Shown piece after piece: positions 44,502 to 62,808 of a stretch of DNA of 64,000 nt. The DNA is taken from NCBI RefSeq assembly GCF_024223415.1, contig NZ_CP100500.1. One strand, given 5' to 3'. The position numbers were made by a program, and so were the translations under genes. The DNA is from Escherichia coli (GTDB lineage Bacteria > Pseudomonadota > Gammaproteobacteria > Enterobacterales > Enterobacteriaceae). Below the pieces are notes generated by a model. That model was given only the letters and a program-made list of their open reading frames with translations, did not search any database and was not told where the DNA came from. Position 1 is the stretch's first letter, and each line of letters starts with the position of its first letter.

Positions 44502-46594
44502 CCTCCGGAAGTCAGCCAGGGGTTAACATCGTCAGTTACTGTTTTCTTCCGTTTTTGTTTTTTAACAGGCGTGGATACCGGTTCCGGTGAGGATGACGGT
44601 TCGGTACTGTCCTGGACACACTCCAGCCAGGTTTCCCGGCTCGCCCACTCCGGTGCATCCGGCCAGCGGATCTTTTCGTATCCATGCAGAATGACCAGAG
44701 CCTCGGCATACACCATCAGGTCAAAAGCTTCGTTGGCACCGCGACCCGGCTTACTCCATTTCCCGTCACTGCTCCGCTCTTCATACGTCAGTTCGTCGTA
44801 AAACCAGCTCCCCAGCCAGTCAGGGAAATGCACATAGCCGGGACCTGGCGAGTCACGCCATAACGCGTTATTCACCCGGTCTTTCAGTGCATCCGTCTGA
44901 AGAAGCCAGAGCGGCACATCACCTGCGGCCTGCGCCCGTCGGCCCGTTCGTCCGGTGTTATCAGGGAATGTACGGGTGATCAGTTTTGCGCGCCGGATGC
45001 TGTCGCCCTTAAACAGGTAAATACGTTTACCAAGGCCATCACGACGGCAACGACGCCAGAATTTATAGGCATTATCAGTGACCCCGTCTTCACCGCCGGA
45101 GTCCACCGCCATTGCCATCAGTCGCATTTGTTGAGAAGGATCGGAGGCCAGCGGCCAGCTTTTATGAAAAACATCCGTCAGCAGGACATCCCAGTCTTCC
45201 GGATAGCTGGCCGGATCAATTCGCTGGCTCTCCCCGTCGCTGTCACCGCGCAATGACTGCGTGATGTTGTAACGATCAATAATCCAGCGTTCGCCACGGC
45301 TGCCATAGCCCGTTACCTGAACCACAAAACGGCGATGACGTCCCGCCTGCACATCCACTGTCGCCACAAGGAAATTAACGCCATCCGGCACACTGCGGGA
45401 AGGAACTGGCTCTGCCCGCTGCTCAAGCAGTTCACTTTTTCGTTGCTCCATGCTGGCGCGGGGAAGATAAGGTAATCCCCAGTCGGTATTGATAACCGTC
45501 TTGAGTGTTTCTTCACTTCCGGTTGTCTCGTATTCCTGTTCTGCAGTAAGCAGTTTGTAAACGAGTTGCGAGAGTGTCTGGTAAGCAGCTGCCGGACCCT
45601 CCATCCAGAATGACGCAATACGTGAGCGTCGGGGATCACCATAACGACTGCCATCCGCATTGATGGATTCACCATCCCGCAACCAGACCCCACGTCCGTT
45701 CAGCTCACGTTTGTGTTCAGGCATAATCCGTCCTGAACAGGAAGGACACTGAATATAAGCCGCCTCACTTGCCAGCACGGGATCGGCAATATCACGGAAA
45801 CCAGCAACCACATCGCCGCAGGGCTGAAAATACTCACCACAGTGTGGACAGGGCCAGTACCAGCGACGGCGATCACCACGGTTATAGAGCGACAGGATCC
45901 CCGTGGTTGGTGGAGCCTCATGCGGTGAAGTCCGTCGCCATTTCACATCCTTCACATCCCTGCCGGGGGAACTCTCCACCAACGTCATACCGCTGGACAT
46001 AAATGTGGTGGTACGTTTTGAGGCAAGAGAGAAGGCATCCCCCTCGCCATCAATATCTTCCGGAAAACGGTCATAATCCGTCAGCGCGACGCATTTATAA
46101 TCTGATGAGGACATGATATTGACTGACGGCCAGCCGATTTTCAGGTAGTTGCCAGCAAGGAATGTTCTGTCATAAACGTTGTTGTCATTTTTGTTCGGAC
46201 TCAGGCGACTGACCACTTCCGGGCTGACGCGAAACGTTCTGGCGAGTCGTTTTTTGGAGTGTTCGCGGGCTTTTTCCTCCGTCATCTGAATGATCAGCAT
46301 ATCAGCAGGATCGCAAATCACGTTGTAAATCACCCAGCCGTCAATCAGGCCGATAGTCTTGCCGGTTCGTGCCGGGCCAACAAATATCACTGCGTCGTAT
46401 TCACGCGAGGCCAGGCAGTTCATCGGCTCAATAACATACGGTGCCACCAGCGGATCCCACGGGACTGAGTTCCCGGCCCCCATGGGCACCCGCATATACT
46501 GAGCAACGGCATCAGCAACCCGCATTCGTCTCGGTGCGCGAAGGATATAACCTGAATCGGTTCGTGCTGCCTTTGCGGTTTCCTGATTCAGCAT
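44492..46594 (-). CDS. terminase large subunit
   Basis: 700 aa; Walker A-like VIFVGPARTGKT; lambda A-like. Confidence 0.9.
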   Translation of the reverse strand: MLNQETAKAARTDSGYILRAPRRMRVADAVAQYMRVPMGAGNSVPWDPLVAPYVIEPMNCLASREYDAVIFVGPARTGKTIGLIDGWVIYNVICDPADMLIIQMTEEKAREHSKKRLARTFRVSPEVVSRLSPNKNDNNVYDRTFLAGNYLKIGWPSVNIMSSSDYKCVALTDYDRFPEDIDGEGDAFSLASKRTTTFMSSGMTLVESSPGRDVKDVKWRRTSPHEAPPTTGILSLYNRGDRRRWYWPCPHCGEYFQPCGDVVAGFRDIADPVLASEAAYIQCPSCSGRIMPEHKRELNGRGVWLRDGESINADGSRYGDPRRSRIASFWMEGPAAAYQTLSQLVYKLLTAEQEYETTGSEETLKTVINTDWGLPYLPRASMEQRKSELLEQRAEPVPSRSVPDGVNFLVATVDVQAGRHRRFVVQVTGYGSRGERWIIDRYNITQSLRGDSDGESQRIDPASYPEDWDVLLTDVFHKSWPLASDPSQQMRLMAMAVDSGGEDGVTDNAYKFWRRCRRDGLGKRIYLFKGDSIRRAKLITRTFPDNTGRTGRRAQAAGDVPLWLLQTDALKDRVNNALWRDSPGPGYVHFPDWLGSWFYDELTYEERSSDGKWSKPGRGANEAFDLMVYAEALVILHGYEKIRWPDAPEWASRETWLECVQDSTEPSSSPEPVSTPVKKQKRKKTVTDDVNPWLTSGGWL

Positions 46595-47088
46595 TACTCC
46601 TCCTGCTGTAATTCCTCCTCATCATCCGCACCTGCTTCAGTCACCCGCAGGGCTATCTGATCGCGCAGATCATCAATAATGGACTGAACACGGCTCACAG
46701 CGGCAGGCTGCAGACCGCAGTCACGTTCAAGAATATCCGGTAATGTCTCCAGCACCTGCACGACCGCTTTTGCCCAGATGGCAAACTCCCGTCTGACATC
46801 ACTGGCCGGAATGAGTTGTGCCGTTTCCTGTTCGAACTTAAGACGCTCACGTTCAGACTGATACCAGGCTTTGCGCTCATGCGCGTCCATTTCGCCTTCT
46901 GCAACCGGCGGTGGTAATGCCAGAAATGCCGACACAATATCAACCACCCGATAAAGCTTGAGGTTGCTTTCATGCCCCCCTGCAACGGGTAGATTTTGCA
47001 GCCTTGCCGCAGCAGTCTGGCGATGTACACCTGACAGTGCCGCCAGTTGACTGATATTAAGCGTCAGATTTTTTAACTCTCGATCCAT
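46594..47088 (-). CDS. terminase small subunit (Nu1-like)
   Basis: 164 aa; N-terminal HTH (LNISQLAALSGVHRQTAAARL); stop overlaps terminase large start. Confidence 0.85.
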   Translation of the reverse strand: MDRELKNLTLNISQLAALSGVHRQTAAARLQNLPVAGGHESNLKLYRVVDIVSAFLALPPPVAEGEMDAHERKAWYQSERERLKFEQETAQLIPASDVRREFAIWAKAVVQVLETLPDILERDCGLQPAAVSRVQSIIDDLRDQIALRVTEAGADDEEELQQEE

Positions 47089-55675: not shown

Positions 55676-56065
55676 TCAGGCAGCTGCACCCGCCGTTTTC
55701 TCGTACTTACTGATAGTGATCTCGACCTTCCCTTCCGGGATAACCGGTCCCCACTCCACCAGCATTCTTTTCACCTGACTGTCGTCTTCCCACACCCCCG
55801 CGTGGGTCAGGGCGTCAAACAGCGCCTTGTTATAGTTGTCCAGATCGCGGATCCTGTTATCCGGAGGAAACAACACGATCTCCACTGAAGCAGGTGCCGA
55901 CGTTGGTTTCGGCAGACGACGTAACTGCTCAACTATTGCTGCGCACGCCGCGCTCTGGAATTTTCGCCCCGCCGCGCTTATCAGGCTCTTACCTGCAAAC
56001 GCCCCTTTGTTAGGGTGTCGCCAGTAAGTGTTCACGCTGGGCGGGAAAGGCAGGATAAGCTTCAT
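55676..56065 (-). CDS. rusA: Holliday junction resolvase RusA
   Basis: 129 aa; RusA signature (PPSVNTYWRH...RDLDNYNKALFDALTHAGVWEDDSQV). Confidence 0.9.
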   Translation of the reverse strand: MKLILPFPPSVNTYWRHPNKGAFAGKSLISAAGRKFQSAACAAIVEQLRRLPKPTSAPASVEIVLFPPDNRIRDLDNYNKALFDALTHAGVWEDDSQVKRMLVEWGPVIPEGKVEITISKYEKTAGAAA

Positions 56066-56388
56066 ACTTTCAGGCCCCTCTCATGTAACCAGTGAGTTGC
56101 ACGCAGCCTGGCGTTTTCCTCACCGGCAAGCAGTGCGCGGATAATCCCGGCTGCCTCGCTGTCGTCGTCCTTCACTGTGGTATGAAGCGTGATACCCCGG
56201 GCCACGCCACGCTTTATCGTGATGACGCCTTTTTTCTCCAGTGCGCGAAGATGCTCCACCGCTGCATTCACCGAACGGTATCCCAGCATGGCTGCCACCT
56301 CCTGATTGGTTGGCGGGAAACCACGTTCTTTCTGATAAGAAATCAGCATATCCAGCACCTGCTGCTGGCATTGAGTTAACGTCGTCAT
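56062..56388 (-). CDS. LexA-type winged-helix DNA-binding protein
   Basis: 108 aa; LexA N-terminal-like HTH (LTQCQQQVLDMLISYQKERGFPPTNQEVAAMLGYRSVNAA); ATGA overlaps with neighbours. Confidence 0.6.
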   Translation of the reverse strand: MTTLTQCQQQVLDMLISYQKERGFPPTNQEVAAMLGYRSVNAAVEHLRALEKKGVITIKRGVARGITLHTTVKDDDSEAAGIIRALLAGEENARLRATHWLHERGLKV

Positions 56389-58818: not shown

Positions 58819-59486
58819 GCGTTAGTTTCTCCACAACCAGAAGCAATCGACGCCACGACGCCCGGAGCTGCACACTCGCGGGCGTCATTACTTTCTGAAA
58901 TGCAAAAGATTTTGTAGACCAGTGCTGCATGCTCCTGCAGCTTCGAAATTGAGAGATACAGCTCGTCGTTAATTGCTGTCTTCTCATGCGGTTCCACTAC
59001 ACCGTCTTCGATTGCTGAACGAATCTGTTTTGAATAACTGCCGATCTGTTCAATGACTTCCAGCAGACGCTGGTTAATATCGGCGTTGTCCACATCCTCG
59101 ACGTCAGGAAGAGACACAAAGACGCCATTTGCAGACTGCGCCACAGCGTCAGCAATGAAGTGAGTTCCACCAGCACGTTGCAAAATCATTGCCCATCCCA
59201 GCGGGAAAATCTGATCGCCATCGGCACGAAGGCGGTTAAATAATGCGTTCTCTGTTACATCCAGCCAGTCAGCTGCTTCAGCGTAACCACCCGGCAACTT
59301 TGCGATAGTTTTTCTGACAGCTTTCACGTACCACTCAGGCTGTTTTTCTACTTTCCAGTGATGCTTACCCACGGTTAGCCTCATCGTTCTGTGGTTTCTG
59401 TTAATCGATTTATCCATTAGATTTTTCATAAAGCTCAGGTTTAAATGGCAACCGTCCGCAAGTTCTATATGCAGCTTCTGCTGCAC
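58815..59486 (-). CDS. putative CII-like early regulatory protein
   Basis: ORF directly downstream of cro-like gene; true start probably an internal Met at ~59384-59429 because the longest ORF overlaps cro. Confidence 0.45.
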
Positions 59487-59610
59487 GTCCTTTTGGAATT
59501 AACTGGCCCGGACGGTTTCGCCACTGATAAACGGCTTCAGTTGTTATGCCGAAAAAAGCAGCAACTTTCTCAATACTGCCGAAGTAGCTTTCGATATCGT
59601 CAGTTGTCAT
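59410..59610 (-). CDS. Cro-like HTH regulator
   Basis: 66 aa; divergent from repressor gene; HTH-like segment (VAAFFGITTEAVYQWRNR). Confidence 0.75.
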   Translation of the reverse strand: MTTDDIESYFGSIEKVAAFFGITTEAVYQWRNRPGQLIPKGRAAEAAYRTCGRLPFKPELYEKSNG

Positions 59611-59707
59611 ACGCCCTCCAAACTAAGTTTTGTTAGATGCTAATTACAAATCTATCTTTGGTCAATAAAAACTAAGATTACTTAGCAATTAAAGAAATGG
59701 TGCTCCT
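59611..59707. promoter_or_regulatory. divergent cro/cI control region with two operator-like 14-bp palindromes
   Basis: CTAAGttttGTTAG at 59623-59636 and perfect CTAAGattaCTTAG at 59672-59685 between divergent starts. Confidence 0.55.
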
Positions 59708-60334
59708 ATGGAAACGGTTGGTCAGCGTATAAAAGCTCTGAGAAGAGTTACCAGAACGTCCCAGAAAGAATTGGGTAAATTTTGTGGAGTAAGCGACGTT
59801 GCTGTGGGGTACTGGGAGAAAGACATCAATACCCCTGGTGGGGAGGCACTTTCGAAATTAGCGAAGTTCTTCAATACGTCAATAGATTACATTCTTTATG
59901 GTGCTGAGTTTGAAGGCAAACTCGTCACAAACATGCGCAGAGTTCCTGTAATATCGTGGGTTCAGGCTGGGCAGTTTACTGAGTGCAGGGCAGCAGAAGT
60001 GTTTAGTGAAGTGGACAAGTGGGTAGATACATCATTAAAGGTTGGTGATAACTCATTTGCATTAGAGGTTAAAGGTGACTCCATGACTAACCCTAATGGC
60101 CTCCCAACAATACCAGAAGGCGCAACAGTGATTGTAGATCCAGATGCAGAACCTCGTCATGGAAAAATAGTCATCGCTCGACTTGATGGAACAAACGAAG
60201 CTACAGTAAAAAAATTAGTCATCGATGGCCCTCAAAAGTTTTTAGTGCCATTAAATCCTCGGTATCCCAACATCCCTATCAATGGTAATTGCCTTATCAT
60301 TGGTGTAGTCAAAGGAGTTCAATACGAACTCTAA
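59708..60334 (+). CDS. CI-type repressor (HTH + S24 LexA-like peptidase domain)
   Basis: 208 aa; N-terminal HTH (SQKELGKFCGVSDVAVGYWE); C-terminal catalytic Ser/Lys context (VKGDSMTNP ... KKLV). Confidence 0.9.
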   Translation: METVGQRIKALRRVTRTSQKELGKFCGVSDVAVGYWEKDINTPGGEALSKLAKFFNTSIDYILYGAEFEGKLVTNMRRVPVISWVQAGQFTECRAAEVFSEVDKWVDTSLKVGDNSFALEVKGDSMTNPNGLPTIPEGATVIVDPDAEPRHGKIVIARLDGTNEATVKKLVIDGPQKFLVPLNPRYPNIPINGNCLIIGVVKGVQYEL

Positions 60335-60413
60335 GGCCTCTCTTCTCTAACTAAGGCACCGAACTAAGAAAAGTTTGGTGTTTTCTCTTGCCATAATAAC
60401 TAAGTTAAGTTAG
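60331..60413. promoter_or_regulatory. cluster of CTAAG operator-like motifs just downstream of cI
   Basis: CTAAG at 60331, 60351, 60364 and palindrome CTAAGttaaGTTAG at 60400-60413, same half-site as the cro/cI region. Confidence 0.4.
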
Positions 60414-60564
60414 ATTTTATATCAAAGATAACGAACAGGCAGGACGCCCACGAAGTAGCCGCCTGGGGCATATAAAGTCCAGGATGATTCGTTAGCAACA
60501 AAAAAGCGCCCTACAGGACGCTTAGCTCTTTAACAATCTGGGTATCATCCAACCAATGCAAGAT

Positions 60565-61086
60565 TTAAGGAATCCAAGGCGAATTCAGATCTCGCCCCAA
60601 CTCACGTAATGATCTTGGTCGTTCGTACATCGGATTTTTTTCCATAAGAAATTTATTTTCACAGTGAAGGCAACGGCTTGTAAGAAAATGAGAAGTTTTA
60701 CCTACTGGAAGCGGATGAAGTATCGATTTTATATTTTTGGAATAACAAAGTGGGCACAGATGCACAGTTATTTCTTTTCCACTCACAATTTCATTTTTAG
60801 AGTAAACAAAAGCACCAGAGTCAAGCTGATCAAGGACATATCCTTCTACCTTGGCACAAAAATCTTCAAACTCTGCAATTTTTGCTTTGAGATGCATCAC
60901 CTCTTCATCACGAAGGCGGATCGCATCGCCAAGAGAGAAGCATTCTGCCTGAAGCGTGATTAGTTTGTTCTGGAGTTCAATGGTTGCAGCTTTAACTTCT
61001 GCATCCGTTTTCGCGTCATTAATAACCTTAGCAAGACCGGCAGTCTCCTTTATAGCGGCCATAGCCGCAGACAGTTCAGCTATCAC
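60565..61086 (-). CDS. hypothetical coiled-coil / zinc-ribbon protein beside the immunity region
   Basis: 173 aa; N-terminal coiled-coil-like region; C-terminal CPLC-x24-CLHC; convergent with cI; antisense frame is low-complexity. Confidence 0.6.
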   Translation of the reverse strand: MIAELSAAMAAIKETAGLAKVINDAKTDAEVKAATIELQNKLITLQAECFSLGDAIRLRDEEVMHLKAKIAEFEDFCAKVEGYVLDQLDSGAFVYSKNEIVSGKEITVHLCPLCYSKNIKSILHPLPVGKTSHFLTSRCLHCENKFLMEKNPMYERPRSLRELGRDLNSPWIP

Positions 61087-61373
61087 GTTGAATACTCAGC
61101 TAGTTGTTGGGGATATCCAGATTAACCAAATCCTTGTTGTTGGGGAATAACTAGGTCCACCTCGCCTGATGTGGCTAAAAGCAGGCACATAACAGCTAAG
61201 TATTTTCAACCAGAGAGAATCCTTAGCGTTGTGGTGAATGCGGCTCAGCGCACGCGGGTTAAGGTTGAGGCTGACAGTCGACCTTCTGTGGATACCCACC
61301 CGCCTGGTGTGCAACCTTCGCCAGGCACCGGGAGGCACCCGGCACCACAACTTTATGCTGTGTGTAGTCCTGG

Positions 61374-61418
61374 CGGTACCAGCTTGTACCCTTGCTTCCG
61401 GCTGGTACCGTCCTTTTT
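61374..61418 (+). terminator. strong stem-loop plus U run in the leftward-operon leader
   Basis: Perfect 10-bp stem cggtaccagc / gctggtaccg with 17-nt loop, then tccTTTTT. Confidence 0.5.
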
Positions 61419-61555
61419 ACAAAACAGAGAAGAGCATCACCGGACGACGGGCTCATAACCCAATCCATCCGGGCGGCAGTCACCGCAGGTGTTCTTCTCT
61501 GTTTTGTGGAGAAACTAACCGACCTTGCAGGGTCGATATGATGAGGAGCAGCAAA

Positions 61556-61918
61556 ATGGCTAGCGAACGCAGTACTGATGTGCAGGCATTTATCGGGGAG
61601 CTGGACGGCGGCGTATTTGAAACCAAAATCGGCGCAGTTCTCAGTGAAGTCGCTTCCGGTGTGATGAACACGAAAACCAAAGGTAAGGTCTCGCTCAACC
61701 TAGAAATCGAACCGTTTGATGAGAACCGAGTGAAAATCAAACACAAACTCTCATATGTTCGCCCGACTAACCGCGGGAAAATTTCCGAAGAAGACACCAC
61801 CGAAACGCCGATGTATGTCAATCGCGGTGGTCGCCTGACTATTCTGCAGGAAGACCAGGGACAATTACTGACTCTTGCCGGTGAGCCTGACGGAAAACTC
61901 CGCGCAGCAGGTCGTTAA
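61556..61918 (+). CDS. hypothetical early protein (YfdP-like, unverified)
   Basis: 121 aa from ATG with RBS gaggag; the upstream in-frame extension to 61238 is Arg-rich and judged non-coding. Confidence 0.55.
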   Translation: MASERSTDVQAFIGELDGGVFETKIGAVLSEVASGVMNTKTKGKVSLNLEIEPFDENRVKIKHKLSYVRPTNRGKISEEDTTETPMYVNRGGRLTILQEDQGQLLTLAGEPDGKLRAAGR

Positions 61919-61983
61919 TATCGTTCTTAATAAACTGATTATTTATCTCATCACTGAATATCTTTATATAGTGAGGACTTATT

Positions 61984-62808
61984 ATGTCTCAGAACTTAGA
62001 CGCAACCGCAATTAATCAAATCCATGCCCTTATTTCTGCTCAGGGTGTTAATGAAATTATCAGTAAGATTGGTGCCGATGCTGTGGCATTGCCTGAGAAT
62101 TTCCGCATTCATGATCTGGAAAAACTTAATTTAAATCGCTTCCGTTTCCGTGGTGCGCTTTCCACTGCCAGCATCGATGACTTTACCCGTTATTCTAAAG
62201 ATCTTGCAGATGAAGGCACCCGCTGCTTTATCGATGCCGATAATATGCGAGCCGTCAGTGTGCTTAACCTGGGTACTATTGATGAACCAGGTCACGCAGA
62301 TAACACCGCCACTCTCAAACTGAAAAAGACAGCACCGTTCTCTGCCCTGTTGTCTGTTAACGGCGAGCGTAACTCCCAGAAGTCACTGGCAGAATGGATT
62401 GAAGACTGGGCCGACTACCTTGTGGGCTTTGATGCTAATGGTGACGCCATTCAGGCAACCAAAGCGGCTGCGGCGATCCGTAAAATCACAATTGAAGCGA
62501 ACCAGACCGCTGATTTTGAAGATAATGACTTCAGCGGCAAACGCTCCCTGATGGAGTCTGTCGAAGCGAAGACCAAAGACATTATGCCAGTGGCATTTGA
62601 ATTTAAATGCGTTCCGTTTGAAGGTCTGAAAGAACGTCCGTTTAAATTACGCCTCAGCATTATCACTGGCGATCGTCCTGTACTGGTACTACGCATTATT
62701 CAGCTGGAAGCAGTGCAGGAGGAAATGGCTAACGAATTTCGTGATCTGCTTGTTGAGAAGTTCAAAGACAGCAAAGTAGAAACCTTTATTGGTACTTTCA
62801 CCGCCTGA
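61984..62808 (+). CDS. DUF2303-family protein (YfdQ-like)
   Basis: 274 aa; resembles CPS-53 prophage YfdQ by length and composition; followed by yfdR-like gene. Confidence 0.6.

Follow-up and report, generated by a model that had tools for sequence, protein, structure and literature searches.

Genes and signals around the cI repressor

The window analysed here is a 64,000-nucleotide stretch of Escherichia coli DNA. It contains a prophage in which the gene for a cI-type repressor is followed, on the opposite strand, by a reading frame that we call ORF173 (Table 1). An earlier note on this DNA had described a 173-aa ORF on the strand opposite to cI and convergent with it, and the ORF list agrees. 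The RefSeq entry for an identical ORF is WP_000559913.1, where it is named 'hypothetical protein'. We refer to the gene as rip1-like, after the HK446 phage protein discussed below.

Table 1. Features of the rip1-like locus. Positions are those of the window.
Feature	Position	Strand	Description	Source
cro / Cro-like ORF	59410..59610	-		ORF list
cI-type repressor (LexA/S24 family)	59708..60334	+	convergent with ORF173	
pL-like promoter, TTGCCA-17-TAGATT	60388..60416	+	overlaps operator copy 60400-60413; antisense through ORF173	promoter scan
Intrinsic-terminator-like hairpin and T-run	60504..60523	-	AAGCGTCCTGTAGGGCGCTT then TTTTTTGTTGCT; 42 nt past the stop codon	scan
boxA-like GCTCTTTAACAA	60525..60536	+	pL leader, just ahead of the cassette	read from sequence
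561-bp cassette	60542..61102	.	ORF173 flanked by 23 nt (3') and 16 nt (5')	blastn
ORF173 (rip1-like CDS)	60565..61086	-	173 aa, GTG start, stop codon 60565-60567	ORF list
Four-Cys zinc-ribbon-like motif	60661..60756	-	C111-x2-C114...C139-x2-C142, within the beta-rich C-terminal domain	
ORF173 N-terminal helical part	60850..61083	-	residues 2-79	secondary structure from AlphaFold2
5' leader, about 105 nt	61087..61190	-	runs up to the GTG; carries GCCTGCTTTTAGCCACATCAGGCGAGGTGG and a pair of CCCCAACAAC boxes	
STnc100/PasD-like prophage sRNA element	61198..61421	+	42.4 bits (gathering 47), E=1.7e-7, full model length	Rfam RF02076

A 17-nt operator-like repeat occurs twice in the gap between cro and cI (59620-59636 and 59669-59685), with a third copy just past cI (60397-60413). 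Homology to Escherichia phage PhiR49_1, which has a different cI, starts at 60430, and we placed the end of the immunity module at that position for this reason. PhiR49_1 offers a parallel to the arrangement in the window: its cI and rip1 homologue are separated by operator repeats of its own and by a near-consensus promoter (TTGACA-16-CATAAT), which is directed antisense through the homologue. Since oL and pL stand between cI and ORF173, the gene is outside the immunity module and antisense within the pL leader. This changes the position given in the earlier note, which had put the gene in the immunity region, where lambda has rexAB. ORF173 lies beyond both the operator copy and promoter at 60388-60416 and the boundary at 60430. 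It is a single, opposite-strand gene downstream of pL and does not belong to the cI transcription unit. The description 'between cI and the leftward operon' holds in the physical sense that ORF173 comes before the first leftward genes, but an operator and promoter intervene and the gene is downstream of pL.

The terminator-like hairpin would, as read from the sequence, end rip1 transcripts before pL. About 110 nt downstream of the pL-like promoter is the boxA-like element, which we take to match the consensus for boxA in the antitermination sites of nut and rrn. Together with the hairpin, it suggests a nut-type antitermination site at the border of the cassette. No N-like gene was evident near the boxA-like site.

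On the other side of ORF173, the STnc100-like element stands back to back with the rip1 leader, downstream of pL, and ends in a hairpin and U-run. STnc100 is related to PasD sRNAs (bioRxiv 10.64898/2026.05.13.724894). In a near-identical genome, RefSeq annotates a 'frameshifted hypothetical protein' over this RNA (61231-61541, plus strand). An ORF of the window (61238..61918) joins the same stretch to yfdP, and the coding status of its first 300 nt is doubtful. Elsewhere in the window, a 108-aa ORF of the pR operon (56062-56388, minus strand) adjoins RusA; its annotation in close relatives is that of a LexA-family regulator, and a LexA-like N-terminal DNA-binding domain makes up almost all of it. 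The small terminase gene of the resident prophage is at 46594..47088 and is annotated as DUF1441 in a close relative.

The protein and its relationship to Rip1

An AlphaFold2 model of ORF173, built from an alignment of the family, had a mean pLDDT of 92.3. It consists of two helices (residues 2-24 and 28-79) followed by six beta strands that bear all four cysteines. In the translation these cysteines form the motifs CPLC (C111, C114) and CLHC (C139, C142), separated by 24 residues. The predicted helices and the Cys-bearing strands after them fit the coiled-coil N-terminus and C-terminal zinc ribbon that the earlier note had proposed.

We compared ORF173 to several collections of protein families. 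Its match to phrog_1244, a PHROGs family with no function assigned there, extends from end to end (E=2.7e-52). The same family takes in HK446 gp37, JBD30 gp30 (E=2.7e-61), and the homologue in vB_EcoM-689R2, all of them also end to end. A scan of NCBIfam returned nothing near the cut-offs, and one of Pfam gave only weak coiled-coil noise (E of at least 0.005). The sole match in a PADLOC v2 scan was a spurious coiled-coil hit to typeIV_DinG (E=0.023); that library dates from 2023 and predates Rip1.

Rip1 ('ring interacting pore 1') is gp37 of Escherichia phage HK446 and forms chain L of PDB entry 9oox, a cryo-EM structure of Rip1 with the small terminase of Enterobacteria phage T6 that was released on 2026-02-04. 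When ORF173 alone was searched against all PDB sequences with phmmer, this protein was the only match (E=1.8e-9), in an alignment of ORF173 residues 5-151 with Rip1 residues 15-160. A search with the family profile gave E=7.8e-50 in the PDB, a value that is inflated because the profile included HK446 gp37, which is Rip1 itself. Aligned directly to HK446 gp37 by BLASTP, ORF173 was 25% identical over 147 residues with one gap (E=2e-13). Only two PDB chains were significant matches to the AlphaFold2 model in Foldseek, and these were chains L and M of 9oox (E=4e-7 and 1.4e-6, target-normalised TM 0.52 and 0.72, respectively, both with probability 1.00). A search of BFVD with the same model found no alternative fold. 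Remote homology and structure prediction, two of the checks that the earlier note had proposed, both point to Rip1 of 9oox, and a protein that its author did not recognise can now be placed in a family with a name and a solved structure.

Homologues identified by tblastn in phage genomes came from PhiR49_1 (at the same site, adjoining a different cI), Klebsiella phages, D3112 (orf25), JBD30 (gp30), DMS3, the lambdoid phage HK446 (gp37), and vB_EcoM-689R2. The four cysteines at positions 111, 114, 139, and 142 are invariant in all thirty aligned sequences, including HK446 gp37 and the homologues from Pseudomonas phages. The D3112, JBD30, and DMS3 proteins, from Pseudomonas Casadabanvirus, are about 29-30% identical to ORF173 and, like it, are encoded on the reverse strand within a lytic operon. 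We found no published phenotype for any of these three homologues. The Pseudomonas moron proteins Tab, Zip, PlzR, and Tip/Aqs1 were considered as possible relatives and rejected, as none belongs to the family of ORF173; Tab shares only its genomic slot with members of the family.

The resemblance to HK446 Rip1 extends over the full length of the proteins, which are collinear, measure roughly 165-173 aa, fall in phrog_1244, and share the cysteine quartet. The predicted fold of ORF173 also agrees with that of Rip1, with N-terminal helices preceding a beta-rich domain that holds the four cysteines. Each is encoded by a single prophage-borne gene opposite to the pL operon with the same 5' leader. 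The two differ in that HK446 Rip1 starts with ATG, is extended by 11 residues at the N-terminus, and has a first helix of greater hydrophobicity, while the C-terminal tail of ORF173 (residues 152-173) has no counterpart in Rip1. Their positions also differ: HK446 rip1 sits after N, whereas ORF173 comes before any pL gene, right after the boxA-like site.

The first helix of ORF173 is rich in Ala and Gly, and the second is long. A comparison of hydrophobicity identified no classical transmembrane segment in ORF173, HK446 Rip1, or JBD30 gp30. The most hydrophobic 18-mer is at the extreme N-terminus of ORF173 and of JBD30 gp30 and at residues 11-28 of HK446 Rip1, and in all three proteins it occupies the aligned N-terminal helix. 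This helix is less hydrophobic in ORF173 than in HK446 Rip1. With its many small residues, the helix may be the pore-forming segment.

These comparisons make it probable that ORF173 belongs, as a divergent member, to the Rip1 family of anti-phage proteins encoded by prophages, and the gene would most likely be a defence gene of a known kind and not a new system. The full-length homology to HK446 Rip1 thus lends support to the suggestion in the earlier note of a function in superinfection exclusion or abortive infection. Two observations weigh against a simple transfer of Rip1 function: the identity is only 25%, and the C-terminal region, which is likely to determine specificity, is the least conserved part of the protein.

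Genomic context, conservation, and spread

A blastn comparison to vB_EcoM-689R6, a phage with the same cI, aligned 59301-60541 at 99.6% identity and 61103-62100 at 99.1% identity, with nothing between them. The intervening 60542-61102 is the only stretch in which the two differ. In vB_EcoM-689R6 the slot (L001 2643-3310) holds a minus-strand gene for a 144-aa phrog_5286 protein and one for a 68-aa phrog_1744 protein, neither of which had a match in a PADLOC scan. In SfV (L094 2591-2887) the same flanks enclose orf33, a plus-strand gene for a 98-aa protein. The phrog_5286 and phrog_1744 proteins and SfV orf33 are candidates for alternative defence or regulatory genes. The terminator hairpin, which also follows the PhiR49_1 homologue, sits in the conserved flank outside the cassette; the upstream leader is likewise in conserved flanking sequence, with the cassette between the two. 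Given that different cargo is exchanged between conserved flanks, the site behaves as an expression slot. The earlier note had called the location a hotspot for exclusion and abortive-infection genes, and the presence of other genes in this slot of a same-cI phage is in keeping with that.

In every context examined, the rip1-like gene is on the strand opposite to its neighbours in the lytic operon. Placement in the pL leader is found in the window, in PhiR49_1, and in prophages of Franconibacter and Edwardsiella. In HK446, rip1 is antisense within the pL operon, between N and the next pL gene. A Serratia prophage has a rip1-like gene that adjoins tail genes. D3112 orf25 (L004 3968-4504) and JBD30 gp30 (L007 4001-4495) are on the reverse strand between the terminase genes. 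The corresponding slot of JBD26 is occupied by tab, a defence gene on the minus strand (PMC10884400).

The 5' leader is conserved upstream of twenty-eight distinct relatives from different phages and genera, and the sequence further upstream is unrelated among them. The same leader precedes HK446 rip1 and the 689R2 homologue. Since the proteins that these two genes encode share only about 25% identity with ORF173, conservation is higher in the leader than in the protein. The start codon is GTG in 27 of the 28 aligned leader-bearing sequences. The Pseudomonas homologues (D3112 orf25, JBD30 gp30, and DMS3) are without this enterobacterial leader. Several GGA motifs are present in it.

We regard the leader as the probable 5' UTR of the rip1-like gene. 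It has two potential short helices, GCCUG/CAGGC and CCAC/GUGG, in an arrangement compatible with a pseudoknot, with pairing in 99.6% of cells. A covariation test of these helices found compensatory changes in one sequence only, which is too weak for a claim of structure, and single-sequence folding of either strand of the leader was no better than for shuffled sequences (z of about -1). Rfam has no family for the leader. Two other interpretations of the leader were rejected: a two-copy site of the put or nut kind, as the window has one copy of the conserved block, and a mini-ORF, which is not conserved. The promoter scan found no sigma-70 consensus promoter upstream of ORF173. Immediately ahead of the conserved block, weak -10-like hexamers are seen repeatedly in otherwise unrelated flanks, and no -35 element could be paired with them.

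Compared to sixteen relatives with 58-90% identity, ORF173 has dN/dS values of 0.10-0.41, which indicate at the sequence level that purifying selection is acting on it. There are 167 homologous clusters at 90% identity, and the family profile found 3,679 representatives at 50% identity. The exact ORF173 protein is on at least 1,000 contigs, always named 'hypothetical', and a 901-nt region around ORF173 is at least 80% covered in 372 of 5,426 complete E. coli genomes. The dN/dS values, the number of homologues, and the spread of the exact protein lead us to treat ORF173 as a real gene.

Conservation is uneven along the protein. Among 104 enterobacterial relatives, median identity to ORF173 falls from 88% for residues 1-56 to 63% for residues 57-110 and 32% for residues 111-173. 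Several relatives have the first 30 residues identical to those of ORF173 and a widely different C-terminal part. In relatives with these identical 30 residues, alternative insertions were seen between the two CxxC pairs. The C-terminal divergence looks like the product of domain-level recombination or rapid diversification. We infer a conserved N-terminal module that oligomerises and acts on the membrane, coupled to a zinc-ribbon sensor that diversifies.

A possible mechanism and its alternatives

Rip1 is reported to give resistance against incoming phage (PMC12908700). The HK446 protein binds the ring of the T6 small terminase as a ring of about 12 subunits (PMC12908700; PDB 9oox), and it is suggested to act as a pore. 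A second report lists Rip1 among the defences that sense the small terminase (bioRxiv 10.64898/2026.04.30.721860).

By homology, the mechanism of Rip1 may carry over to its homologue ORF173. In a lysogen, cI would shut pL, and ORF173 would be transcribed from its own conserved leader to its own terminator. The resting protein would be soluble, with its helical part and zinc ribbon. Late in infection by another phage, a Rip1-like ring would bind the ring of the invader's small terminase, for which HK446 Rip1 and T6 provide the precedent. The conserved Ala/Gly-rich N-terminal helices would then make a pore in the membrane and the infection would stop. Which terminases are recognised would depend on the C-terminal domain, the zinc ribbon, which is variable. 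On induction of the resident prophage itself, transcription from pL running against ORF173 could switch the gene off. The small terminase of the resident prophage may also simply not be recognised by the ORF173 protein. A fuller version of this scheme, which we offer tentatively and consider rather doubtful, treats the locus as a control module. It would combine a leader RNA that gates translation, an obligatory antisense position that silences the gene on induction, and a swappable zinc-ribbon sensor that retargets the pore-forming N-terminus to various ring proteins of phages. In such a module, induction would silence the antisense-embedded gene and self-killing would thereby be avoided.

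Other known systems share parts of this scheme. Tab of JBD26 is likewise a minus-strand defence gene that is expressed from the prophage by its own promoter and acts late, on virion assembly (PMC10884400). It differs from ORF173 in being an unrelated protein of 83 residues that targets the tape-measure protein and tail assembly (PMC10884400). Tab also needs a partner, anti-Tab, for self-protection (PMC10884400), whereas no partner gene is evident beside ORF173. Further sensors of the terminase are Avs1-3, which respond to the large terminase, and TerI, which responds to the small one (bioRxiv 10.64898/2026.04.30.721860). These resemble the proposed mechanism in that a conserved phage DNA-packaging protein is the signal of infection. 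The Avs proteins are large NTPases of the STAND type whose effector domains are separate, while ORF173 has 173 aa and is on the scale of a single domain; the PADLOC scan and the Foldseek search of the PDB gave no sequence or fold match between ORF173 and Avs or TerI.

The position beside cI also invites comparison to lambda RexAB, a prophage-expressed abortive-infection function that adjoins cI and whose output is the loss of membrane potential. The two rex genes are co-transcribed with cI and lie inside the immunity region, between cI and oL. ORF173, by contrast, stands alone, beyond oL/pL and on the opposite strand, has a leader and a terminator of its own, and shows no sequence relationship to RexAB.

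We weighed four explanations against the defence function described above. One accepts the Rip1 fold and changes the trigger or the output: the C-terminal domain could have been retargeted to some other ring-forming phage protein, for example a portal or a different oligomer of virion assembly, or ORF173 could block packaging by sequestration, without a pore. The low identity of residues 111-173 even among close enterobacterial relatives, with their alternative insertions, would leave room for this, as would the great size and diversity of the family (the 3,679 representatives) and the name itself, which says 'ring interacting' and is not specific to terminases. We nonetheless think it unlikely, as the sole structural and literature data tie the family to the small terminase, and the conservation of the N-terminal module favours a shared output. 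A role in the prophage's own life cycle, for instance in modulating its packaging or terminase or in timing lysis, appears quite improbable. The gene is opposite to the lytic genes everywhere examined and has its own terminator in the window and in PhiR49_1, which is typical of accessory genes expressed from a prophage. It is also dispensable, since the same-cI phage vB_EcoM-689R6 is without it. In addition, HK446 Rip1 was solved with the terminase of T6, an unrelated virulent phage, and the small terminase of the resident prophage carries a different annotation, DUF1441.

The remaining two explanations would set the gene apart from defence altogether. The lack of a detectable consensus promoter upstream and the label 'hypothetical' in all databases are what one might expect of a passenger gene that is silent or decaying and at present serves no function in this prophage. 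We judge this highly improbable because ORF173 is intact and has low dN/dS values, because the identical protein and the surrounding region are so widespread among contigs and complete E. coli genomes, and because its leader is conserved more than the protein. The last explanation is a regulator of early transcription, be it an antirepressor, of the kind that the earlier note had said would overturn its proposal, or a zinc-finger factor like DksA/TraR. The combination of a coiled coil with a C4 zinc motif after it does superficially resemble DksA/TraR, and the gene adjoins cI. The chance of such a role is close to negligible: Pfam showed no zf-dskA_traR or antirepressor domain, NCBIfam gave nothing above cut-off, and the only structural relative is Rip1. 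Identity with DksA/TraR in particular was rejected, given the lack of a domain match and the different cysteine spacing (x2-x24-x2 in ORF173).

With the Rip1-like defence function as the preferred reading, a common 'hypothetical' protein of prophages in E. coli and other Enterobacteriaceae would gain a function that can be tested, namely sensing of the small terminase with an abortive, pore-type outcome. The newly described Rip1 family would be extended to a subfamily that is 25% identical to its characterised member. The conservation gradient, the exact boundaries of the cassette, and the common leader provide handles on two questions: the evolution of target range in such proteins and the means by which a prophage escapes setting off its own defence. 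This bears on host range in phage therapy against E. coli.
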